A DNA stretch of 14,397 nt, from positions 1-14,397 of the forward strand of contig JAISBS010000066.1 of the NCBI GenBank assembly GCA_031266075.1. Reading direction: 5' to 3'. The position numbers were made by a program, and so were the translations under genes. The notes beneath the pieces are model-generated. The model had not been told where the DNA came from. It was given only the letters and a program-made list of their open reading frames with translations, and ran no database searches. The stretch is from Treponema sp. Its GTDB lineage: Bacteria; Spirochaetota; Spirochaetia; Treponematales; Breznakiellaceae. Shown here in pieces: positions 3,573-13,975 of this stretch (the stretch's first letter is position 1; the number at the start of each line of letters is the position of its first letter).

Positions 3573-4766
3573 CTAAAAGCGCAGCCGGGCTTTGACGGTG
3601 AGGATAAAGCGGCTTCCCCCGGAAGCATCCGGCGGGATGGGGCCCAGTTCGCCCCGGCTGCCGTTTCCGGAAAAGAGGTCCCGGTCCAGGGGGGCCTGGG
3701 CGGAGAGGTTCAGGGTAAAGCCCTGAAAGAGTTCGTGTTCCGCGCCGAGGAGCGGTACAAAGGAAATGTCGCTGAACGAGGAAAGACAGGCCAGGGTGAA
3801 GCGGGTGTAATCGCTGTATAGCCAGGTCAGGCCGGTGTAGAGAAAATGTTCGCCGGAGAATCCGGCCAGATTGCCGCTCCGTACCGATGTGGAGGAGGCG
3901 GCGCCGTTGTAGAGATATTCCATCTGGACATACCACTTGCCGTCCGAAAAGGAATAGTCAAAGCCGCTGTTAAAGGAAAGGCCCTGGATATCCGCGCCGT
4001 CTTCGGGGTTATGGGTGTAAAGCATATCCACGGTAAAACCCAGTTCAATATCCGCCTTGAGGGAGAAGCCGCAGCGGTGTATGCCCTGGAGGGAACCGGG
4101 CTTTGGCAATTCAAAGGCGTAGAGGGCCTGGATACTGGCCTTGTCCCAGTGCTGATCTCCGGAGAATCCCGCCAGGCCTCCGTCTCCTTCCAGGGCCAGC
4201 GGATCCCTGGGCGCGGAGCCGAAAAGCTGAAGTTTCAGGGAATCCAGCGGATAGGCCGTAAGGGTTCCGCCCAATACCGCCCGGGGCCGGGCGTCGGGGA
4301 TCAGGGGATTTTTGGGGTTGAGAAAATCCGAGGGTCCGAAAACCTGCCCGTAACCAAAGGCGATCCGCATAAGGCCGCCGTCAAGATCCAGGTAATCGCC
4401 CGTGAGCCTGAAGTAAAGCCGTTCCAGTTCCAGCCCTGCGGCGTAGTTTTCCCCGGCGCTAAAAGCGGAGGGCGCGGGCCCTGGAGACGCGGCCCCCGCT
4501 CCCAACACGGCTGCCGCGGGACCGCCCGCCGCGGCGGTCAAATTCAGGGCCCCGTAAAAAGAAACGCCGTCCCGGGGCTTCGCCTGCATTCGCAGATTGG
4601 CGTATTCTTCAAGGCCGTAAAAAAAATCCGGCATACTGCCCGCCCCAGCCCCCAGGGTAACTGTCGTGTCCAGAATCCCCAAAAACTCCAGCCCCCCGGC
4701 CCAAAGCGCCCTGCCCGCCGTCAGGACCGCGCACAAACCGGCCAACAAAAATCTTTTTCCGCCCAT
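3573..4766 (-). CDS. Predicted outer-membrane beta-barrel protein (signal peptide; C-terminal ...ARLRF beta-signal)
   Basis: 397 aa. The N-terminus MGGKRFLLAGLCAVLTAGRALWA reads as a signal peptide. The body is rich in Gly/aromatic strand-like segments. The last residue is Phe with an alternating hydrophobic pattern (LTVKARLRF), typical of a BAM-recognised terminal strand. It starts 5 nt after the LolA-like stop. Confidence 0.55.
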   Translation of the reverse strand: MGGKRFLLAGLCAVLTAGRALWAGGLEFLGILDTTVTLGAGAGSMPDFFYGLEEYANLRMQAKPRDGVSFYGALNLTAAAGGPAAAVLGAGAASPGPAPSAFSAGENYAAGLELERLYFRLTGDYLDLDGGLMRIAFGYGQVFGPSDFLNPKNPLIPDARPRAVLGGTLTAYPLDSLKLQLFGSAPRDPLALEGDGGLAGFSGDQHWDKASIQALYAFELPKPGSLQGIHRCGFSLKADIELGFTVDMLYTHNPEDGADIQGLSFNSGFDYSFSDGKWYVQMEYLYNGAASSTSVRSGNLAGFSGEHFLYTGLTWLYSDYTRFTLACLSSFSDISFVPLLGAEHELFQGFTLNLSAQAPLDRDLFSGNGSRGELGPIPPDASGGSRFILTVKARLRF

Positions 4767-4771
4767 GATAA

Positions 4772-5527
4772 CTACCGTTCCAGATTCCGCTGGCTGAATA
4801 CCGAATCGGGGATGGGGCGGTCCAGAATGACATTCCGCATTACCAGCGTGGTCTTGCTGTTTTTCCGCAGAAGGTCCCGGATCTCAATCTCCACCGGGAA
4901 GCGGCGGCCTCCGAAAACTTCCACCCTGACAAGATTGTACTCTTTGAGTTTCGCCCCCGAAAGAGCGAAAAGTTCATAGTGGAGGCAGTCCCCGGTTTCC
5001 TTGTCGATCCAGAGTTTTTGTTTCGGGTAACTTTCGGTCCGCTTTTTCGCGGTGAGGTCCAGGATCCAGCAGTCCCGGCTTGCGCCGTTCATGATCCAGT
5101 CCGCGGAACCGCCGATGGCCGGATCATAGCGGGCCGAGAGCGTTTCGTTTTCGATTGTGTCTTCGTAGGACATATCGGAACCCATCATGCTTTCTTTCAG
5201 CATATGTCCTGAGATCAGCATCACTTCCTCGGTATCAGGCGAATACACGTAGAGCCGCCCGCCTTTTTTCAGGTACTTGGTTCCCCGGTCTCCGGGATTA
5301 ATAAATTCAACAAAACTGTCGGAATTTCCCCTGCCCCAGAAGTTCATGGTTTTTACAAACCGCTTGTTCTGATACTCGATGATCATATCCCCTTCGTATT
5401 CGATGGTGGTATAGATCTCGTTATCATCCACCCGCCGCAGCAGTTCCGCCGCCGAGGGCGTCTGCCCATACACGAATGAGCCCGCCATCACCGTAAACAA
5501 AACCGTCCATACCAGTGCTTTCATCAT
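4772..5527 (-). CDS. Secreted LolA-like protein (outer-membrane lipoprotein-sorting/carrier-like; PF17131-type call is tentative)
   Basis: 251 aa with signal peptide MMKALVWTVLFTVMAGSFVYGQ and a soluble, acidic mature part. It is positioned between an FtsX/MacB-type permease and an OMP gene, where LolA-like genes typically sit. The family assignment is from recollection and is not verifiable without an HMM search. Confidence 0.5.
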   Translation of the reverse strand: MMKALVWTVLFTVMAGSFVYGQTPSAAELLRRVDDNEIYTTIEYEGDMIIEYQNKRFVKTMNFWGRGNSDSFVEFINPGDRGTKYLKKGGRLYVYSPDTEEVMLISGHMLKESMMGSDMSYEDTIENETLSARYDPAIGGSADWIMNGASRDCWILDLTAKKRTESYPKQKLWIDKETGDCLHYELFALSGAKLKEYNLVRVEVFGGRRFPVEIEIRDLLRKNSKTTLVMRNVILDRPIPDSVFSQRNLER

Positions 5528-5562
5528 AAACCTCCCGTGTTTTTTTAGTCCTTTAACTGGAC

Positions 5563-5598
5563 TTGTTCAAAAACTGAAGTTTTTAAACAACTCTATTA
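5563..5598. repeat. Palindromic intergenic repeat copy b: TTGTTCAAAAAC-TGAAG-TTTTTAAACAA-CTCTATTA
   Basis: Read directly. It lies in the 68-nt gap between permease 2 and the LolA-like gene, and its 3' end overlaps the permease-2 stop codon (TAA at 5596-5598). On the - strand RNA the arms pair perfectly, with one G:U. Confidence 0.7.
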
Positions 5599-6864
5599 TC
5601 TCCGCAGCGCTTCCACCGGCTCGACGAACGCGCTTTTGAGAGACGGAAACAAAGTGCAGATCGAAGTGATCAGCACGCCGAAAACAAAACCCTGAAGCAG
5701 GATCACCGGATCAAAGACAAGGGTTATGGTTCCCGCTATGGGGAATTCCTTCATGCCGCCGCCGGTGAAGATGTCCAGTTCCAGGGGGAAGAAAGAAAGA
5801 GCCAGGGTTACCATGCCCCCCGCCACGCAGCCTGCCAGAGAACCCAGGACGCTGAGGAACACCGCTTCAAAGAAAAAGACCCGGACGATCTCGGCCCGGC
5901 TCATTCCCAGGCTCCCCATCATGCCGATCTCCTTGATCCGCTCGTGGATGATCATCACCACGGTGTTGACAATAAGAAAGCTCGCCACAATAAGAAAGAC
6001 CAGGTAGACCACCGTAAAAATCATCATGCTCTGCCGCATCAGGATCACAAAATAATTATCCCGCCAGTCCCGGACTACGTTGTCTTTCCCCAGCAGGGTT
6101 TTGAATTGCGCGGTCAGGTTCCGGCTTTGGGAGGCGTCTTCGGCATAGATAAAAAGCTGCTGGGTTCCTTCTTCCAGCGCGAGGAGCCGCTGGAGCCGGG
6201 CAAAGTCAACGATGATTGCGTCTTCGTCATACTTGAGGTAATCGAACCGGAATATCCCGGTAATAACCGGGCTCCACATCTTGTCGGAGAACTGGGCCGA
6301 CACGGTTTTAAGGGGCAGGCGGTCGCCCACCCGGAGCCCGGCTTTTTCGGCCATCCTGACCCCGATGGCGCACTCGTTGGCCTCCGGTTCGGGGTAGCGG
6401 CCCGCCGCAAGACCTGAGTCCCGGCGGGTAAGGTTAAAGTTGTTCAGGGCCAGTTCCTCCCGGGCCTTGATGCCCCACAGAAACGCGTGTTTCACCGTGC
6501 TGTCCTGAAGGGTGGCGTAGGCGGTAATCCGGGGAAGAACAGCCTTTACCCCGCTGAAATTCAGCGCCCGGCGCTCCAGTTCCGCTACGGAAAGGCCCCC
6601 GGCAACGGGAAACCAGACGGGGTAATATTCTTTCTCCGCCTCGTAACGGGAGGAAACCACGCTCACATGGCCGGTGTCAAAAGTACAAACCACTTCTTCT
6701 ACGTTGTCCTTCATCCCCACCATCCAGGCCTGCATAAACACCGTAAAGAACACCGCGATAGCCGCCGCGCTGATGCAGAACAGCGTCCGCCGCCGGTTCC
6801 GCAAAATATTCCGGTACGCGATCTTGATGAGCGTCCCCGCCCCGCCAATTTTCATGCTGCTCAT
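5596..6864 (-). CDS. ABC transporter permease, FtsX/MacB/LolC-E type (4 TM plus periplasmic domain)
   Basis: 422 aa. N-terminal TM1 (RRTLFCISAAAIAVFFTVF), a periplasmic domain of about 200 aa, and a C-terminal 3-TM FtsX bundle (MMIFTVVYLVFLIVASFLIV ... ). A strong RBS AAGGAGG lies 5 nt upstream of the ATG at 6862-6864. Confidence 0.85.
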   Translation of the reverse strand: MSSMKIGGAGTLIKIAYRNILRNRRRTLFCISAAAIAVFFTVFMQAWMVGMKDNVEEVVCTFDTGHVSVVSSRYEAEKEYYPVWFPVAGGLSVAELERRALNFSGVKAVLPRITAYATLQDSTVKHAFLWGIKAREELALNNFNLTRRDSGLAAGRYPEPEANECAIGVRMAEKAGLRVGDRLPLKTVSAQFSDKMWSPVITGIFRFDYLKYDEDAIIVDFARLQRLLALEEGTQQLFIYAEDASQSRNLTAQFKTLLGKDNVVRDWRDNYFVILMRQSMMIFTVVYLVFLIVASFLIVNTVVMIIHERIKEIGMMGSLGMSRAEIVRVFFFEAVFLSVLGSLAGCVAGGMVTLALSFFPLELDIFTGGGMKEFPIAGTITLVFDPVILLQGFVFGVLITSICTLFPSLKSAFVEPVEALRR

Positions 6865-6874
6865 ATATACCTCC

Positions 6875-7042
6875 TTATTCGCCGTGGGGGTCTAATACCC
6901 TGCCCTTTAGGGCGGTCAGAATTGGTAACACCAACAAAAATGGTAGTAGACCCCCACAGTTAATAATTTCTTTACAGAACGAACCTCGTAAAATGATGCA
7001 ACGCCTACAAGATACCCCGTCCTTCAGGGCGGGGAGGTTCAT
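6875..7042 (-). CDS. Unannotated small ORF (57 aa), Cys-rich: MNLPALKDGVSCRRCIILRGSFCKEIINCGGLLPFLLVLPILTALKGRVLDPHGE
   Basis: Hand-translated from the - strand. Its ATG (7042-7040) overlaps the permease-1 TGA (7041-7039) in an ATGA arrangement. Its TAA (6877-6875) sits directly against the GGAGG RBS of permease 2. It has a CxxC-x7-C-x5-C pattern followed by a hydrophobic 16-aa stretch. It is below the 60-aa cutoff of the ORF track. Codon usage is AT-richer than the neighbouring genes. Confidence 0.3.
   Translation of the reverse strand: MNLPALKDGVSCRRCIILRGSFCKEIINCGGLLPFLLVLPILTALKGRVLDPHGE
7007..7034 (-). terminator. Terminator- or attenuator-like hairpin directly after the permease-1 stop: CCCCGCCC-UGAA-GGACGGGG followed by UAUCUUGU
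   Basis: On the - strand this is a 7/8-bp GC stem with a UGAA loop and then a moderately U-rich tail. It lies inside the operon and inside the candidate small ORF, so it is a partial terminator at most. Confidence 0.3.
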
Positions 7043-8805
7043 TCAAACCGCAGGCTTTCGGTGATCGGCATCTTGAGGGCGCGGCGGGTGGGGAAGAAGG
7101 CCATACAGGCCGCAAGCGTTGTGGCGGCGATCCCGGAGCCGATGATTACCGGAATGTTCCACGCGGAACGGAAGACGCCGGTAACCCGGTAGCCGATGTC
7201 TCCTCCGGCGGCATTGGTCATGGCACTAAAATCCAGGCCGTATTTAACCATGGGGATATTGATAAGGCAGCCTGCCGCAATGCCGATGAGGGAACCAAAG
7301 AAGCCCACCATGCCCGCTTCCATCATGTAGGTGCCGATCAACTGGCCGTCGGTCATGCCCATGGCCCGCATCATGCCGGTTTCCCGGGTTCGTTCCAGAA
7401 TGGCCAGCAGCATAGTGTTGGCGATCCCCATGAAGGACAGGATGAAGAGGATGATAACCATGATCTGATTGGAAACATTGTCCCCCTGAGAGGCCGCAAG
7501 GTAATCCCGCACATAGGCTTCCCAGGAAAAAATATCCAGTTCCTCCGGCAAGGCTGCCGGCAGGGAATATGCGGTTTTCGCCATGGTTGTTTCGGTGATG
7601 CCCGTTCCGGCCACAGCCGCTTTAATGGCCGCGGGACTCTCGGTCTTTCCGGGAACCTTTGCGTCATCGGCGTTTTTTATCCGTATGAGAAGTTCCGTCA
7701 CCCGGCCTTCCAGCATAAGTCCCGCTTCGTCCTGTAAAACATCCAGGGGAATCCAGGCGGTGTTGTTGTTGTTCCGGGGATTGGGGGAATTGACCACCCC
7801 GGCCACCACCGCGGAAACAAGCTGGTTCACGTGCCGTATGGCCCCGGCGTAATCTACCCGGACCATGGCGGTCAGCACCGCGGCCTGGAGCGCTTCGTCT
7901 TCGGAATAGAGATACCACGCCTGGGTTAGTTCATCAAACTCATAGGCGCGGTGGAAAAGCGCCCGCTCTTCCGCGTTTAAGGCCGGGGCCAGATCCACGT
8001 CAAATTTTTCCTTCCGTACCGATTCGGGGGCGGCCTTGATGTCGATGACCGTGGAGATTTGCACGTTCATCCGCCCCGTTTCCGCCAGCAGGTTCCAGTA
8101 GCGGTCCAGGTCCTGCGGGGGGATATTTTTTTTCAGGGTCTGGCGTTCCTCGCCGGGCCGGGAGGGAGCCGCCTCCGCCGGAGCGAAGAGGCCGCCGCTT
8201 TTTGCCGGCGCTTTTTCGTAGAGGCCCCGCACAAAGTCCCGTTCCTCCGGCGGCAGGCCGGGCAGAATGTCCCCGTCCAATTCATCCGCCGTGGGCCGCT
8301 GGGGAATCCCCACCTTGAGCTTGTCCGCCGTTACCGCCCCCAGCGCTATTTCGAAGGCGCCGCTTTGAATAAAGCGGCCCGACTCGATGTACCGGGGGTA
8401 ACGGAGGATCCGCGCCTCCGCCGCCGGGTCGCAGCCGATAAACTGCATGGGCGCGGAGGCCGCTTCCGTGTAGAGGGTCCCGGTAAACACAAAGCGCGGG
8501 GCGCTGTTATAGCCCGCTTCGTCCAGAGCCGCGGCGCACTGTTCCCAGCCGCCGAAATTTTCGTACATCGGAAGTTCGTCCTTTTTGGCGAAGTAGGTTT
8601 TTTTCTGGAGTTTCGCCGCGCCGATCTCGAAGTTGGCGATGTTCCGCAGGGAATCGATGTTTATCCCCGCAAGCCAGCCGTCCATAAAAACATAGAGCGC
8701 CACGCTGATACTTACCGCGGCGATGGTAAGAACCGTCTTTACCTTATGCCGCGCCAGGTTCCGCAGCGCCAGCCGTTTGAGTTCGATTACGCCTGCCATA
8801 GTCAT
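7039..8805 (-). CDS. ABC transporter permease, FtsX/MacB type with a greatly enlarged (~420 aa) periplasmic domain
   Basis: 588 aa. TM1 is at residues ~20-45 (VLTIAAVSISVALYVFM). The next TM segments begin only at ~residue 465 (IMVIILFILSFMGIANTMLLAIL). The C-terminal 3-TM FtsX bundle is followed by ...TESLRFE. Its start overlaps the ATPase stop as ATGA (8802-8805). Confidence 0.85.
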   Translation of the reverse strand: MTMAGVIELKRLALRNLARHKVKTVLTIAAVSISVALYVFMDGWLAGINIDSLRNIANFEIGAAKLQKKTYFAKKDELPMYENFGGWEQCAAALDEAGYNSAPRFVFTGTLYTEAASAPMQFIGCDPAAEARILRYPRYIESGRFIQSGAFEIALGAVTADKLKVGIPQRPTADELDGDILPGLPPEERDFVRGLYEKAPAKSGGLFAPAEAAPSRPGEERQTLKKNIPPQDLDRYWNLLAETGRMNVQISTVIDIKAAPESVRKEKFDVDLAPALNAEERALFHRAYEFDELTQAWYLYSEDEALQAAVLTAMVRVDYAGAIRHVNQLVSAVVAGVVNSPNPRNNNNTAWIPLDVLQDEAGLMLEGRVTELLIRIKNADDAKVPGKTESPAAIKAAVAGTGITETTMAKTAYSLPAALPEELDIFSWEAYVRDYLAASQGDNVSNQIMVIILFILSFMGIANTMLLAILERTRETGMMRAMGMTDGQLIGTYMMEAGMVGFFGSLIGIAAGCLINIPMVKYGLDFSAMTNAAGGDIGYRVTGVFRSAWNIPVIIGSGIAATTLAACMAFFPTRRALKMPITESLRFE

Positions 8806-9488
8806 TGTTTCACCTCGTCCGATTCGATTTGGCCGTCGCGGATGCGGATGATCCGGCGGGCAACGTCCATCACCATAAGGTCATGGGTGGAGAAGATGAA
8901 CGTGGTTCCTTCGCTTTGGTTGAGCCGCAGCATGAGTTCCAGAATTTCCCGGCCAATTTTGGAGTCCAGGTTCGCCGTGGGTTCATCGGCCAGAATCAGG
9001 GTGGGCCGTTTTATCAGGGCCCGCGCAATGGCCACCCGCTGCTGCTGGCCGCCGGACATTTCTTTGGGCCGCCGTTTTTCCATACCCTCAAGTCCCACCT
9101 GCGACAGAACCTGCCGGACCCGGTCGCGGGTTTCCCGCCTGTCCGTCCCCAGCAGAGTCAGCGGGAAGCCGATGTTTTCTTCTACTGACAAAACGGGAAT
9201 CAGGTTATATGCCTGAAAGATAAAGCCGATACTGTACCGCCGCAAAAGGGCCAGCTTTTTTTTGGAAAGATTGGCGATGTCGGTGCCGCCGACGCTTATG
9301 GAACCCCCGGTGAGGGTATCGAGGCAGCCCGCCAGATGAAGGAACGTTGACTTGCCGCTTCCCGAGGGCCCGGCAATGGCGGCAAAATCCCCGCCCCGGA
9401 ATTCCAGATTCACCCCCCGCAGAGCGTGAACCGTCTGCCCGTTTATCCCATAGTCCTTTACCAGATTTTCCGCCTTTACCACCGTCAT
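8802..9488 (-). CDS. ABC transporter ATP-binding protein, LolD/MacB-NBD type
   Basis: 228 aa. Walker A GPSGSGKST, signature LSGGQQQRVAIARAL, Walker B LILADEPTANLD, H-loop STHD. AGGAGG lies upstream of the ATG at 9486-9488. Confidence 0.95.
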   Translation of the reverse strand: MTVVKAENLVKDYGINGQTVHALRGVNLEFRGGDFAAIAGPSGSGKSTFLHLAGCLDTLTGGSISVGGTDIANLSKKKLALLRRYSIGFIFQAYNLIPVLSVEENIGFPLTLLGTDRRETRDRVRQVLSQVGLEGMEKRRPKEMSGGQQQRVAIARALIKRPTLILADEPTANLDSKIGREILELMLRLNQSEGTTFIFSTHDLMVMDVARRIIRIRDGQIESDEVKQ

Positions 9489-9508
9489 GGTATGCCTCCT
9501 GACCTTAT

Positions 9509-9566
9509 TTGTATTATTGAACTATTTATCTAGTACAATAGTAAATGAGCTAGTACAATATGTCAA
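9509..9566 (-). promoter_or_regulatory. Promoter TTGACA-N17-TACTAT of the ABC operon with embedded operator half-sites TAGTACAA (x2 direct) and TTGTATTA
   Basis: - strand: -35 TTGACA is plus 9561-9566 and -10 TACTAT is plus 9538-9543. The 16-mer ATCTAGTACAATAGTA (plus 9528-9543) is identical to the one at the GntR promoter (11265-11280). A second TAGTACAA at 9551-9558 lies in the spacer. Confidence 0.5.
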
Positions 9567-9598
9567 GTGGAAAAGGGGAAAATTTTGAATTCCGGGGT

Positions 9599-9644
9599 AA
9601 AAAAAGGGAAGCGCTGAAACCCGGTTGGGTTTTCAACGCTTCCC
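9599..9644 (-). terminator. Rho-independent terminator of the GntR-SPFH transcript
   Basis: On the - strand there is an 8-bp perfect stem GGGAAGCG...CGCUUCCC (9606-9613 / 9637-9644). It has an inner GAAACCC/GGGUUUC stem and is followed by UUUUUUU (plus A-run 9599-9605). It lies 30-80 nt downstream of the SPFH stop. Confidence 0.6.
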
Positions 9645-9675
9645 TTAATGAAAAACGGGGTTTCCGGCGGTTCCC

Positions 9676-10839
9676 CTAAGTCCCGCCTTTACCTTTTTTC
9701 TGCCGCAGTTCCGCCAGGGCTTGCAGGCCGAAGATGTCCTTCGCCTTGAGTTCCTCGGTGATGGAATTGGGTACCAGCATCATGGAGTTCCCCGCCTTGA
9801 GGCCCTCGTTCAAAATCGAAAGAATTTTGAGCTTCATGGCCGGTTCGTTTTTCGCGTAGATGGCTACCGCGGTTTCCAGCTTTTTGGCGATTTCGATCTC
9901 CGCGTCCGCCAGGAGGATCCGGCCTTTCTTTTCCCGTTCCGCCTGGGCGATCCGGGAGAGGGAATCCTGAAGGTCTTCGGGGATCTGAATGTCGGTGATT
10001 TCAATATGCTGGATGGTGATGCCCCATTCGGTGGTTTTCCGGTCCACTTCTTCCTGAATCTGCTTCTGGATGATTTCGCCATGCTCCAGAAAGGTGGACA
10101 GGTCGTGGCTGGACACGGAGTTCCGCAGGGCGGTTTTCGCGGAGAGGATCACCGCATCCTGGTAATTTTCCACTTCCAGTACCGCCTTCTCCGGATCCCA
10201 GACGAGCCAGAAGCAGAGGGCGTCCACGGTAACTGTTACTGAATCGCCGGTGAGGGTTTCCTGGGCCACAAAGTCCGTAACCCGGATGCGGAGATCCACG
10301 GTCTGCGCGACCCGGTCTATCAGGGGGATGAGGACAAAGATGCCGGGGCCCTTGACCCGGTGGAAGCGGCCAAAGCGGAGGACGATGGCCCGCTCCCATT
10401 CATCGGCTTTCTGCACCAGGGGGGCGATGAGGGCTGTGAGCGCGGCGAAGAGCAGGGCCGGGCCAAAATCGAAATCCCTTTGGGGGAACCAGATGAACCA
10501 GGCGGCCCCCGCCGTGCAGATCAGGGCGATGCTGATCTTAACCGCCGCGGCCCAGCGGGGGAACAGCGTCATGCAGAGGAGAGTCAGGGCGGGAAGGCCC
10601 AGGAGCAGCCCCAGTTCAGTTGCAGAAGGGAAGCTCCCGCCAAGGCTGAGGCCCGCCAGCACAAAGAGGACGGCGGCGGCGAGGATGCCCAGCCCCGCGG
10701 CGCTCAGGGTAAAGTCCCGTTTTTTTTCCGGCGGGGAAGGGCGGTTTTTGATGTGGGGCTTGTCCGAAAGGAAGCCTGTTTCGCGGCGCTTCAACTCGGG
10801 GCCGCCGGTTTGGTCCGGTTCGCCTTTTTTCCTAAACAT
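9676..10839 (-). CDS. SPFH/band-7 (stomatin/prohibitin-like) membrane protein with an N-terminal ~4-TM extension
   Basis: 387 aa. Residues ~45-145 contain four hydrophobic segments. The PHB core follows: EWERAIVLRFGRFHRVKGPGIFVLIPLIDRV...VDLRIRVTDFVAQETLTGDSVTVTVDALCFWLV, then a coiled-coil-like C-terminal tail. RBS AAGGAGAA is present. The ATG (10837-10839) overlaps the last codons and stop of the GntR gene by 8 nt. Confidence 0.85.
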   Translation of the reverse strand: MFRKKGEPDQTGGPELKRRETGFLSDKPHIKNRPSPPEKKRDFTLSAAGLGILAAAVLFVLAGLSLGGSFPSATELGLLLGLPALTLLCMTLFPRWAAAVKISIALICTAGAAWFIWFPQRDFDFGPALLFAALTALIAPLVQKADEWERAIVLRFGRFHRVKGPGIFVLIPLIDRVAQTVDLRIRVTDFVAQETLTGDSVTVTVDALCFWLVWDPEKAVLEVENYQDAVILSAKTALRNSVSSHDLSTFLEHGEIIQKQIQEEVDRKTTEWGITIQHIEITDIQIPEDLQDSLSRIAQAEREKKGRILLADAEIEIAKKLETAVAIYAKNEPAMKLKILSILNEGLKAGNSMMLVPNSITEELKAKDIFGLQALAELRQKKGKGGT

Positions 10840-11266
10840 CTTGCGATTCTCCTTTTTCGTAACGGTACCCGTGGATCAGTTCCGGAAGCTCCGCCTGATC
10901 CACTCCTAAATCCTTCATATCCTGTATAAAGCGGCCCAGCACTTCCCGAATTTTCCGGTTCAGCCCTTCCTCGGCGGAAGCCGCTTCTCCCAAAAGGGGC
11001 GCTTTGTCCGACACATAGGTGCCGCTCCCCACCTGGGTGGTCAGGATACCCCGGATTTCCAGTTCCCCATAGGCTTTGGCGATGGTATTGGAGTTGATCT
11101 TCAACTCCACCGCCAGGGAACGGATAGTGGGCAGCCGGTCGCCGGGCCGCATCCGCTCCGAAAGGATGGCATATTCAATCTGCTGAATGATCTGTCGGTA
11201 AATCGGCGCCCCGTTGGACGGGTTCAGGGTAAAACTGATGGCCGGTTCCGCATTTGTACTATTCAT
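10832..11266 (-). CDS. GntR-family transcriptional regulator, short C-terminal domain (YtrA-like subfamily)
   Basis: 144 aa. The winged HTH reads PIYRQIIQQIEYAILSERMRPGDRLPTIRSLAVELKINSNTIAKAYGELEIRGILTTQVGSGTYV. Only ~60 residues follow, with no FadR/HutC/MocR-size effector domain, which is the hallmark of YtrA-type regulators that control adjacent ABC exporter operons. Confidence 0.85.
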   Translation of the reverse strand: MNSTNAEPAISFTLNPSNGAPIYRQIIQQIEYAILSERMRPGDRLPTIRSLAVELKINSNTIAKAYGELEIRGILTTQVGSGTYVSDKAPLLGEAASAEEGLNRKIREVLGRFIQDMKDLGVDQAELPELIHGYRYEKGESQDV

Positions 11267-11303
11267 CTAGTACAATAGTAGATACGCTCGTACCATGTGT
11301 CAA
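11254..11303 (-). promoter_or_regulatory. GntR promoter TTGACA-N17-TACTAT (near-leaderless) plus inverted repeat TTGTACTA-N6-TAGTACAA centred on the GntR start codon
   Basis: - strand: -35 TTGACA is plus 11298-11303 and -10 TACTAT is plus 11275-11280, only 8 nt from the ATG (11264-11266). The palindrome arms are at 11254-11261 and 11268-11275. The 16-mer 11265-11280 is identical to 9528-9543. Confidence 0.5.
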
Positions 11304-11374
11304 GACGGTTTTGACCGGATCTCCAGGAGGACCGGCTGTAACCACCCGCCCTTCCGTTTTTTTCAATAATGGAC

Positions 11375-11406
11375 TTGTTCAATAACCCAGTTGGTTATTT
11401 CACAAG
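11375..11406. repeat. Degenerate palindrome TTGTTCAATAACC-cagtt-GGTTATTTCACAAG sharing the TTGTTCAA seed with the repeat family
   Basis: Read directly; the arms match 11/13. It lies in the divergent intergenic region between the GntR gene and the RND efflux operon. Confidence 0.35.
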
Positions 11407-11448
11407 TCTCGCAAAATGCTCCGCATTTTTGCTGTTTTTAAGAGGAAG

Positions 11449-11484
11449 TTGTTCAAAAACTGAAGTTTTTAAACAACTCTAATA
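11449..11484. repeat. Palindromic intergenic repeat copy c: TTGTTCAAAAAC-TGAAG-TTTTTAAACAA-CTCTAATA
   Basis: Read directly. Confidence 0.7.
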
Positions 11485-11557
11485 AGGAAATCAACAACTG
11501 CCTGAAACCGGGGTTTCCAGAAGTTCTCCTTTTTTTGTATGCTTGTTCCGGGGTTGC

Positions 11558-11593
11558 TGTTCCAAAAACTGAAGTTTTTAAACAACTCTAATC
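11558..11593. repeat. Palindromic intergenic repeat copy d (left arm degenerate: CTGTTCCAAAAAC): TGAAG-TTTTTAAACAA-CTCTAATC
   Basis: Read directly. It ends 19 nt before the GTG start of the TolC-like gene and is adjacent to the GGAGGG RBS at 11602-11607. Confidence 0.65.
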
Positions 11594-11612
11594 ATTTTTT
11601 CGGAGGGATTGG

Positions 11613-12965
11613 GTGGGGCGTGTTTTTGCCGGATGTTTTTTTCTTGCGGTAAGCCTGTCCCTGGCCTGGCCGGAGAATGACCCGCCGGGGGTTCTGTCCG
11701 GCGGCCCGCTGGTTCTTACACTGGACGAAGCGGTGCGGCGGGCGCTGGAGGAGAATCTGGATCTGAAAAAGCGGCTCATCGACCTTTCCGCCGCCGGATA
11801 CGCCGCGAAAAACCTTTGGGCGGAACTGTTCCCCTCCATCACCGCCGGAGCGGGGGCGAGTTACGGAACCGGGCTTTTTTCGGGGAACGGGTTTGAACTG
11901 GACAAAAGCGGCCTTGGCTATGATCTTTCGGCAGGGTTGAGCCTGAGCCTGAACGCGGGACTTCCCCAGACCATGAAGATCATCAAACTGGCGTACCAGT
12001 CCCGGCTGCTGGAATATGAGGATGCCCGGCGGCAGCTTGAAACGGTGATTGCCAAAAATTTTTACACCCTGCTGACGGACCGGGAGAACCTTGCCCATCT
12101 GGAAAAAACCCTTGAACTGGCGGAACGTCAGCTTGAACGGGACCGGATCGCCTTTAACAACGGCCTCAAGGGGGAGCTGGCCCTGCTTCAGAGCCGGCTG
12201 GGCGCGGAAACGGCGAAGTACCGGCTCAGCAATGCCCGGACCGCCTATACCGCCGCGCTGGGGGATTTTTTGGCCCTTTTGGGGATTCCCCAGGACAGGC
12301 CGGCGGTTCTGGATGGGGAGATCGACATCTACCCGGTGGACGCGGAGCCGGAGGCCTTGATCCGGGAATATCTTCCCAAACGGCCTGACATTCTGGGCTG
12401 GGGGCAGGCCATCGAGAGCCTTGAGTATACGGCGCGGCAAAACGCGCTGGAGGCCCGGGCCCCTTCGCTGACTTTGTCCACCCGGTGGAGCAGCCAGTTT
12501 GAACCCTTCGCCGACCGGGTGAACGGTTCCGTATCGGTTTCCATCCCCATTGATTCCTGGGTTCCCGGAACCCGAAGGGACCGGGCCCTGAAAACCGCGG
12601 CGGCGAATGTCGAAAAAGCCCGGCTGGATCTGAAAAACGCCGAAAACGAAGCGGCCTCCCGGATCCGGTCTTTGGCCGCGGGCCTGAAAAATTCCTGGGC
12701 CGGCATCGAGATTGCCCGGCTCAGTGTGGAGATTGCGGAACGAACCTATGAACTGCACGAAGAGGGTTTCCGGCTCGGTACGGTGGAGTCGCTGGCGCTG
12801 GAGGACACCCGGAACAGTCTGGCGGAAAAACGGCAGCAGCTTTTGCAGAGCGAATTGGCCTATCAAACTATGACGCTGGATTTGGCCGCCGCCCTCAATA
12901 TAGACTGGAAAATATTGGGGGATATAACAAACGCCCCGGAAGCCTCCGCGGGGAGTGAACGGTGA
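11613..12965 (+). CDS. Outer-membrane efflux protein, TolC/OEP family
   Basis: 450 aa with a GTG start, signal peptide MGRVFAGCFFLAVSLSLAWP, and an N-terminal LTLDEAVRRALEENLDLK motif. It has a two-repeat coiled-coil/beta architecture typical of OEP. The opposite-strand ORF (11592-12983) is Pro/Gly/Arg-rich and looks spurious. Confidence 0.85.
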   Translation: MGRVFAGCFFLAVSLSLAWPENDPPGVLSGGPLVLTLDEAVRRALEENLDLKKRLIDLSAAGYAAKNLWAELFPSITAGAGASYGTGLFSGNGFELDKSGLGYDLSAGLSLSLNAGLPQTMKIIKLAYQSRLLEYEDARRQLETVIAKNFYTLLTDRENLAHLEKTLELAERQLERDRIAFNNGLKGELALLQSRLGAETAKYRLSNARTAYTAALGDFLALLGIPQDRPAVLDGEIDIYPVDAEPEALIREYLPKRPDILGWGQAIESLEYTARQNALEARAPSLTLSTRWSSQFEPFADRVNGSVSVSIPIDSWVPGTRRDRALKTAAANVEKARLDLKNAENEAASRIRSLAAGLKNSWAGIEIARLSVEIAERTYELHEEGFRLGTVESLALEDTRNSLAEKRQQLLQSELAYQTMTLDLAAALNIDWKILGDITNAPEASAGSER

Positions 12966-13975
12966 AACATACAAAGACCTCAAAGAGAGTAACCATCGTT
13001 ATCAGCGGTTTGACGGGTATTTTTGTTTTGCTCATTGGCTGGACCGTAATTCAACGGCGCCCGCCCGCGACGCCGTCCGCCGCAGGGCCCGGCGCGGCGG
13101 CTCCAGCTTCGGCGGGCGGCGGCCCCGGCGCGACGGCTCCAACTCCGGCGGGCGGTGAGGCTGGGCGTGGCGGCGGGGCGGCCCGGAACGCCACCGCAGT
13201 GCGGGTAACGCCGGTAACGCTGGATACCATCGAGAATTCGGTAGTCATTAACGGAGACGTGCTGGCCCGGAACCAGGTTTCCATTTACCCCACCGTGGCG
13301 GGAAAACTGGCGGAAGCCCGGCGGGGAATCGGCGACCGGGTGAACCGGGGGGATGTGGTGGCCATGGTAGATCCTTCCCGGCCCGGAGAGTTTTATTCCC
13401 TGAGCCCCGTGGTTTCCACTATTTCCGGCACCGTACTGCAGGCCCCCTTCAGCGCCGGCGATACCCTGTCCACCGGATCGGCGGTCTATGTGGTGGGGGA
13501 CCTTTCGGAACTGGTCGTGGAGACCTTTGTGCCCGAGCGGTTCACGACCGCGGTGCGGCAGGGGCTGGCCGCCCAGGTGAGTTTTGAAGCCCTGCCGGGG
13601 GAAATTTTCCCCGCCGCGGTGGATGAGGTAAGCCCCGTGCTGGATCCCGCCAGCCGCACCATGAAGATCCGGCTCCGCTTTACCGGGTGGGCCGACCCCC
13701 GAATCCGGGCCGGAATGTTCGCCACGGTGAGCCTGGTAACCAACACCCGCTCCAGCGTACCGGTGATCCCCCGGGGCGCGGTGATCAACACCTACGGTTC
13801 CTGGATTGTCTTTACCGTTGACGATGAACAAACCGCCCGGCGGCGTTCCGTTACCCTGGGCCTTGAAAACGAAACTTTCATCGAAGTAAGCGGCGGCCTT
13901 GAAGAGGGGGAACTGGTGGTTACCGCGGGGCAGAATTTTTTAAGCGACCGGGATCCGGTCCGCATTATCGAATAG
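12962..13975 (+). CDS. Efflux RND periplasmic adaptor subunit (membrane fusion protein, HlyD/AcrA family)
   Basis: 337 aa with a GTG start overlapping the TolC stop (GTGA). There is an N-terminal TM anchor, a Pro/Ala/Gly-rich linker, then lipoyl/beta-barrel/MP-domain-like sequence (VTPVTLDTIENSVVINGDVLARNQVSIYPTVAGKLAE...). Confidence 0.85.
   Translation: MKHTKTSKRVTIVISGLTGIFVLLIGWTVIQRRPPATPSAAGPGAAAPASAGGGPGATAPTPAGGEAGRGGGAARNATAVRVTPVTLDTIENSVVINGDVLARNQVSIYPTVAGKLAEARRGIGDRVNRGDVVAMVDPSRPGEFYSLSPVVSTISGTVLQAPFSAGDTLSTGSAVYVVGDLSELVVETFVPERFTTAVRQGLAAQVSFEALPGEIFPAAVDEVSPVLDPASRTMKIRLRFTGWADPRIRAGMFATVSLVTNTRSSVPVIPRGAVINTYGSWIVFTVDDEQTARRRSVTLGLENETFIEVSGGLEEGELVVTAGQNFLSDRDPVRIIE
13088..13156 (+). 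repeat. Imperfect 36-bp tandem duplication encoding GPGAAAPASAGG / GPGATAPTPAGG in the adaptor-protein linker
   Basis: Two 33-nt units at 13088-13120 and 13124-13156 with 29/33 identity and an in-frame period of 36 nt. Confidence 0.7.

Follow-up and report, generated by a model that had tools for sequence, protein, structure and literature searches.

The YtrA subfamily of GntR regulators is defined by a C-terminal domain of two helices (~50 residues), and its genes mostly lie in ABC transporter operons (PMC4494728). The YtrA regulators characterised so far act as repressors of two targets, the operon they belong to and a single other locus (PMC8060467, PMC6746942, PMC5080381), and their operators are typically 22-24 bp long with distal half-sites (PMC6746942). 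The signature of these operators is dyad symmetry over this length, with GT/AC pairs in distal position (PMC4494728, PMC6746942). Auxiliary half-sites have been described both for Sulfolobus YtrA and in a comparative study of GntR motifs (PMC6746942, PMC4494728). The 229 YtrA regulators listed in the comparative study include no Spirochaetes (PMC4494728).

In Bacillus subtilis, the YtrA system (ytrGABCDEF, ywoBCD) also has a short GntR repressor encoded in an operon with an ABC transporter (PMC8060467, citing Salzberg 2011). An inverted-repeat operator is found before the YtrA operon and before one further operon, the arrangement proposed here too (PMC8060467), and reads AGTGTA-13bp-TACACT, compared with TTGTACTA-N6-TAGTACAA in the present locus. 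Unlike the B. subtilis system, the transporter here is MacB/LolCDE-like, is accompanied by LolA-like and SPFH proteins and belongs to a diderm spirochaete, and the second target would be the split-off half of the same ancestral operon. YtrA of Sulfolobus acidocaldarius (6SBS) has a very small regulon of its own operon and one membrane-protein locus, as is proposed here, and a semi-palindromic motif over the transcription start with extra half-sites flanking it (PMC6746942). This archaeal protein is a structural neighbour of the regulator model described below; it differs in its BRE/TATA promoter, its 14-bp core motif and the lack of an ABC transporter. PmtR of Staphylococcus aureus and MbrR of Streptococcus salivarius are YtrA-type repressors of their own regulator-ABC operon, again as proposed here (PMC5080381; bioRxiv 10.64898/2026.02.18.706565). 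The operator of MbrR is palindromic over 22 bp, G3/C20 being critical, and its geometry is that of the palindrome reported here (bioRxiv 10.64898/2026.02.18.706565). These two systems differ in belonging to Firmicutes and in serving peptide export or resistance; their induction involves PSM peptides or sequestration of the repressor by the transporter ATPase.

The window, by which we mean the whole 14.4-kb stretch of DNA that was analysed, from a termite-gut Treponema sp. MAG, contains the following features, with P1 denoting the promoter of the gntR-SPFH unit and P2 that of the ABC unit:

3573-4766, minus strand: gene for a 397-aa secreted protein with a hydrophobic signal-like N-terminus and a C-terminal Phe, last gene of the P2 unit
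4772-5527, minus strand: gene for a LolA-like protein, P2 unit, gene order as in relatives
5596-6864, minus strand: gene for a second FtsX/MacB-type permease, P2 unit, gene order as in relatives
7039-8805, minus strand: gene for an FtsX/MacB-type permease, P2 unit, gene order as in relatives
8802-9488, minus strand: ABC ATPase gene (LolD/MacB/DevA-like), with the ribosome-binding site GGAGG ahead of it at 9499-9495
9509-9516, no strand: extra box beside the P2 palindrome, TTGTATTA, with one mismatch, window-specific and outside the conserved module
9517-9538, no strand: candidate P2 operator palindrome, TTGAACTA-TTTATC-TAGTACAA, with one arm mismatch and ATA where P1 has ATG
9538-9566, minus strand: promoter P2 of the ABC unit, with -35 box TTGACA at 9566-9561, 17-nt spacer and -10 box TACTAT at 9543-9538
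9551-9558, no strand: upstream box in the P2 spacer, consensus, TAGTACAA on the plus strand
9597-9646, minus strand: intrinsic terminator after SPFH, with a ~19-bp stem (9604-9646) followed by U7 (9597-9603)
9676-10839, minus strand: SPFH/Band 7 membrane protein gene (PF01145), second in the P1 unit, found after gntR in nearly all relatives
10832-11266, minus strand: ytrA-like GntR regulator gene (144 aa), from PF00392 and YtrA-type structure matches
11254-11275, no strand: candidate P1 operator palindrome, TTGTACTA-TTCATC-TAGTACAA, with perfect 8-bp arms, spanning the expected start (~11268) and the ATG at 11266-11264
11275-11303, minus strand: promoter P1 of gntR-SPFH, with -35 box TTGACA at 11303-11298, 17-nt spacer and -10 box TACTAT at 11280-11275
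11288-11295, no strand: upstream box in the P1 spacer, decayed, TCGTACCA against the consensus TAGTACAA, placed from the block alignment and relatives

The order gntR-SPFH-ABC-FtsX-FtsX is found in the window and in most of ~170 related loci. Beyond the ATPase, the P2 unit spans 3573-8805 on the minus strand. Its last product, the 397-aa protein, has no Pfam or NCBIfam match and could be the outer-membrane beta-barrel partner of the MacB/LolA-like system. The two permease genes are 174 nt apart (6865-7038), and a 25-nt inverted repeat (6875-6899, 6942-6966) lies between them; this gap is probably another inserted element, because most relatives have ~10-80 nt or an overlap there. The SPFH protein has 387 aa in the window and 309-331 aa in relatives, the surplus of ~65 residues being a hydrophobic insertion at the N-terminus, which apparently adds a membrane segment. 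As the excess is N-terminal, it was rejected as a read-through artefact of the inserted spacer. Divergent from gntR (11613-13975, plus strand) are genes for a TolC-like outer-membrane efflux protein and an RND/MacA-type periplasmic adaptor, a neighbourhood that is absent among the 80 metagenomic relatives considered below.

A complete tmRNA gene (Rfam RF00023, 140 bits, E = 1.5e-55) lies at 1596-1969 on the plus strand. The Rfam scan of the whole window gave this match and none in the promoter region, which rules out a riboswitch or other known RNA element at the promoters. The window also holds four copies of an intergenic hairpin repeat with the core TTGTTCAAAAACTGAAGTTTTTAAACAA (723-786, 5535-5598, 11421-11484 and 11530-11593), one of which, at 737-792, folds as a stem of 21 bp. 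The SPFH-ABC gaps of three relatives (L089, L119 and L160) contain related hairpins (GTTCAAAAAC...GTTTTTGAAC), and the stem of the terminator after SPFH (TTGAAAACCCAACCGGGTTTCA) resembles these hairpins. All this has the look of a small dispersed REP- or MITE-like family.

The 144-aa regulator matches PF00392 over residues 23-85 (E = 4.6e-17), a GntR-type wHTH, with ~59 residues beyond it. The AF2 model, of only moderate confidence with a mean pLDDT of 67, has three helices and a beta hairpin over residues 22-85, followed by two C-terminal helices, residues 98-119 and 126-136. Among solved structures the best sequence matches, all full-length, are to the short GntR proteins (120-134 aa) 4HAM, 3BY6, 4R1H, 3NEU, 6SBS and 2DU9, and a Foldseek search with the model ranked the same YtrA-type structures first. 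With a GntR wHTH, a reduced two-helix C-terminal domain and linkage to ABC genes, the regulator is, by profile match and predicted fold, a YtrA-type GntR protein, as had been proposed from the DNA letters. Its scores lie below the curated NCBIfam cut-offs for PmtR (NF047563, 55.6 bits vs 200) and Rv1152 (NF053730, 62.7 vs 170), and judged by these scores it is thus not an orthologue of a named regulator.

An earlier note on this DNA had reported an identical 16-mer at the two promoters. Exact matching does find ATCTAGTACAATAGTA exactly twice in the window, at 9528-9543 and 11265-11280, with no further match at up to three mismatches anywhere in it, and a twofold occurrence was reached in 0 of 200 shuffles. 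The 16-mer is part of a 51-nt duplicated block (9517-9567 and 11254-11304) that is 84% identical between the copies. A consensus scan of 8700-11700 returned two sigma-70-like promoters and no more; the two lie on the minus strand and each reads TTGACA-17-TACTAT, in agreement with what the note had read, and at both the shared core covers the -10 box and the start site as it had stated. P1 and P2 have -35 and -10 hexamers within the 16-18 nt spacing expected for sigma-70, and the boxes are kept in relatives. Being near consensus with an optimal 17-nt spacer, both promoters should be strong unaided.

The main element in each block is a 22-bp palindrome, TTGTACTA-N6-TAGTACAA, with arms of 9 bp in the consensus of relatives. 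It begins at the final base of the -10 hexamer and overlies the expected transcription start. Exact TAGTACAA/TTGTACTA boxes occur in the 14.4 kb at 9531-9538, 9551-9558, 11254-11261 and 11268-11275 only, all inside the two blocks. The palindrome has G at position 3 and C at position 20, with the geometry of the MbrR operator, and a palindrome of the YtrA operator type (~22-24 bp, distal GT/AC pairs) is conserved at sequence level in 81 of 81 orthologous sites.

An additional TTGTACTA box lies exactly 20 bp upstream of the palindrome, between the -35 and -10 boxes. In the ABC promoter this is the extra half-site at 9551-9558 that had been claimed before; it is an exact box and is conserved in relatives, in many of which the spacer box region forms a 12-bp palindrome, TGTACTAGTACA. 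No partner arm was found for the spacer box at 14-bp spacing, and we therefore regard it as an auxiliary half-site. The possibility that this box belongs to a second full palindrome of 22 bp was considered and rejected, as the needed arm would fall on the -10 region, where only 3 of 8 consensus bases match. The earlier note had also taken TTGTATTA at 9509-9516 for a degenerate inverted half. A box with one mismatch does exist there, but the aligned and conserved arm, and thus the true partner half-site, is TTGAACTA at 9517-9524; TTGTATTA has no counterpart in other second copies of the block.

The start codon of the regulator gene (ATG, 11266-11264) is the centre of the P1 palindrome, fixed 8 nt past the -10 box. 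It is preceded by the operator arm, with no Shine-Dalgarno sequence, and the canonical start site, the A at 11268, gives a leader of 0-2 nt. The gntR ORF runs from the palindrome ATG in 154 of 154 complete loci, and across gntR loci between 16 and 56 residues separate this start from the conserved PIY motif. Many loci, the window included, have no alternative start codon before the conserved domain. From an ATG within the palindrome and the missing Shine-Dalgarno sequence, we infer that the regulator mRNA is leaderless or near-leaderless. Leaderless repressor genes such as cI of phage lambda, transcribed from PRM, have the layout predicted here: they lack a ribosome-binding site, and within the operator region of the gene the start codon coincides with or adjoins the point where transcription begins. 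The lambda protein belongs to another family, and the leaderless status proposed here comes from sequence geometry. In another spirochaete, Borrelia burgdorferi, short and zero-length leaders have been documented (PMC5314773). A single orthologue (L078) has AGG for the operator ATG (~85-137, upstream of its gntR match). The substitution gives rise to a ribosome-binding site, GAGGA, 7 nt ahead of a downstream in-frame ATG, and this locus appears to be a leadered variant of the same gntR start.

Conservation of the promoter and palindrome, together called the module, was followed in 80 orthologous metagenomic loci (63-74% protein identity, mostly metagenome-assembled spirochaete genomes). The module stands ahead of the regulator gene in 80/80, with the consensus cTTGACAtATTGTACTAGtaCAttTAtaATTGTACTAGATGAATAGTACAAt. 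In the 81-site matrix, positions from the -35 box through the end of TAGTACAA reach 2 bits or nearly so, save a few spacer and -10 positions; the -35 box and a TAnnnT -10 box are invariant. Conservation drops sharply on both sides of the module, including the coding sequence right after the palindrome. Across the ~170 related Spirochaetota loci, the ~50-nt module is nearly invariant and found only before gntR or the ABC ATPase gene, the latter in 10 cases including the window. The ~0.97 Mb of related loci contain 173 sites with up to four mismatches from the 22-mer, all of them at a gntR start or before an ABC ATPase gene. The 7-mer core clusters nowhere but at module sites in 363 kb.

A wider scan covered 185,579 GTDB species genomes with the strict promoter-plus-box pattern TTGTACTAR-N11-TTGTACTAGAT, a pattern that leaves isolated palindromes outside. 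It gave 89 hits, with ~2 expected by chance. The full module is present in 87 of them, all outside the window and in Spirochaetota-type loci, followed by gntR in 76 and by ABC-FtsX-FtsX-LolA-like genes in 8, the remaining 3 being cut by contig ends; at these 87 sites no gene other than gntR or the ABC ATPase gene follows wherever the sequence is readable. Two hits without a promoter (L117 and L158) were rejected as modules and attributed to chance or other repeats. Records with the full module are spirochaete genomes, bar a few MAGs labelled otherwise, which are taken to be mis-binned; the isolates Treponema sp. TIM-1 (L094) and Brucepastera parasyntrophica RmG11 (L144) are among these records. 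Since only gntR or ABC genes follow the module, it is not a common genomic repeat, the case that the earlier note had named as speaking against its reading.

Part of this conservation is due to RNA polymerase, because both promoters are near consensus. Alternatively, an unlinked transcription factor other than the GntR protein could use the conserved block as its operator, or a special sigma factor could recognise it, and gntR would then be no more than a regulated gene. The motif is unvarying among regulator homologues down to 48% identity, which leaves no protein-DNA co-variation to compare. Against this, the module is tied to gntR or to the ABC genes of its usual operon in every sufficiently long locus. 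It is moreover a dyad of 22-24 bp whose GT/AC pairs are distal, as is characteristic of YtrA-type operators (PMC4494728, PMC6746942), and the -35 and -10 hexamers are of the common sigma-70 kind, 17 nt apart. We consider this explanation improbable.

The reading that we prefer is that the 144-aa YtrA protein represses its own gntR-SPFH unit at P1 and the ABC unit at P2 through the shared operator, and we hold this to be likely, given the observed anatomy of the blocks, their conservation and exclusive placement, the fold class of the regulator and the terminator. A dimer of the regulator would sit on the palindrome TTGTACTA-N6-TAGTACAA, directly downstream of the -10 box at two strong sigma-70 promoters, and the extra TTGTACTA box 20 bp upstream, between -35 and -10, would probably aid binding. 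Once bound, the regulator would block RNA polymerase, the classical steric arrangement of a repressor, keeping down its own gntR-SPFH unit at P1 and, in trans, the ABC-FtsX-FtsX-LolA-like-397aa unit at P2. The mRNA of the regulator would begin 0-2 nt before the AUG, with its start codon central in its own operator. By analogy with described systems, induction could come about through an envelope-active compound or through the transporter sequestering the repressor. Linkage and family precedent point to the regulator as the binder, and we infer repression, stoichiometry and the inducing signal as well; the comparative data speak strongly for a shared operator, and the autoregulation and co-regulation of the adjacent ABC genes suggested in the earlier note gain support from the conservation and exclusive placement of the module.

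The conserved box between -35 and -10 would also suit an activator or dual regulator, for which it would act in a MerR-like manner. This seems very improbable, as an optimal 17-nt spacer and near-consensus hexamers make an activator unnecessary, the main palindrome overlies the start site, and the YtrA-type proteins characterised so far are repressors (PMC8060467, PMC5080381, PMC6746942).

The SPFH stop and ABC start overlap or are at most 5 nt apart in 25 of the 26 metagenomic loci that hold both genes, and in most relatives gntR-SPFH-ABC-FtsX-FtsX-LolA-like-397aa forms one operon with one module. The SPFH-ABC gap of the window is 187 nt, with the terminator and the second module, and by comparison with the abutting or overlapping genes of 25/26 relatives these represent a derived split, one that several lineages show. 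The terminator hairpin (-39.4 kcal/mol, z = -4.3) has the stem and U7 of an intrinsic terminator; it was missed by a simple terminator scan, presumably because the hairpin is beyond the stem and loop limits of the scan. The rho-independent terminator described previously between SPFH and the ATPase is therefore real. The two transcription units proposed along with it hold for the window, where the terminator separates them, but this layout is the exception among relatives. The ancestral state would be a single autoregulated operon, divided at the SPFH/ABC junction in the lineage of the window by a second promoter-operator module and a terminator.

Second copies before the ABC gene are also present in nine other loci (L060, L090, L093, L128, L137, L138, L151, L156 and L161). 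As in the window, SPFH lies a few hundred bases upstream of the second copy in L090, L128, L151 and L156; in L137 its end is ~1.6 kb upstream, and in at least one genome (L082 and L093) the two units are on separate contigs. A clear terminator precedes the second copy in L128, again as in the window. The ATG of the palindrome has become ATA in 7 of the 10 second copies, including that of the window, while the arms are kept with at most one mismatch each. This indicates that the arms are conserved for a function at the DNA level and not for coding or translation. The ATA change removes a spurious start codon. Downstream of every second copy come a ribosome-binding site and the start codon of the ABC gene. 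In a neighbour-joining tree of the ABC proteins, a weak tree of a short protein, the split loci are mostly in the clade of the window, with two elsewhere. Their presence in more than one branch suggests that the split probably arose more than once.

That the second copy is a dispersed or mobile repeat, a chance match or an assembly duplication of no regulatory meaning is barely credible, even in a window that does hold an unrelated dispersed hairpin repeat family, given that each genome has one or two modules, placed solely at these two gene starts, that second copies precede the ABC gene in at least nine other loci from more than one branch of the ABC-protein tree, and that a ribosome-binding site and ABC start codon follow each.

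Some further features of the second copies can be noted. SPFH-ABC gaps of 100-180 nt in relatives show only weak resemblance to the module, in L112 and L127. The second copies of L093 and L128 keep the ATG, which opens a 14-codon frame whose TGA overlaps the ABC start (ATGA), an arrangement suggestive of a leaderless upstream ORF in translational coupling with the ABC gene. The window (9486-9529) has the same 41-nt distance and frame, with ATA for ATG. In the three split loci that belong to the clade of the window and have a visible gntR promoter (the window, L090 and L156), the spacer box has decayed or been lost at gntR and is intact in the ABC copy. In this small sample (n=3), loss of the box at the gntR promoter only may reflect differential tuning of the two units.

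A YtrA repressor acting on a palindrome at its own promoter and at that of its ABC genes is an ordinary, textbook circuit and will not surprise the specialist. It is well conserved in Spirochaetota, a phylum where it had not been described before. For an uncharacterised envelope transporter system, found in spirochaetes of the termite gut and the environment, the analysis provides a precise candidate operator together with a candidate regulon of two units. New compared with the earlier reading are the derived split, the ATG within the palindrome and TTGAACTA as the partner half-site. The series of fused and split operons, which all share one cassette, cleanly illustrates operon fission through duplication of a promoter, and together with the start codon embedded in the operator this natural series of splits through cassette copying is the most interesting aspect of the locus. 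For Treponematales as a whole, the evidence tilts modestly towards a leaderless YtrA-type autorepressor with its AUG in mid-operator, whose 50-nt cassette would have been copied repeatedly to the SPFH/ABC junction, giving two units co-regulated in trans, followed by decay of the upstream box of P1 in the clade of the window. If true, this decay would uncouple the dosage of the regulator from that of the transporter.
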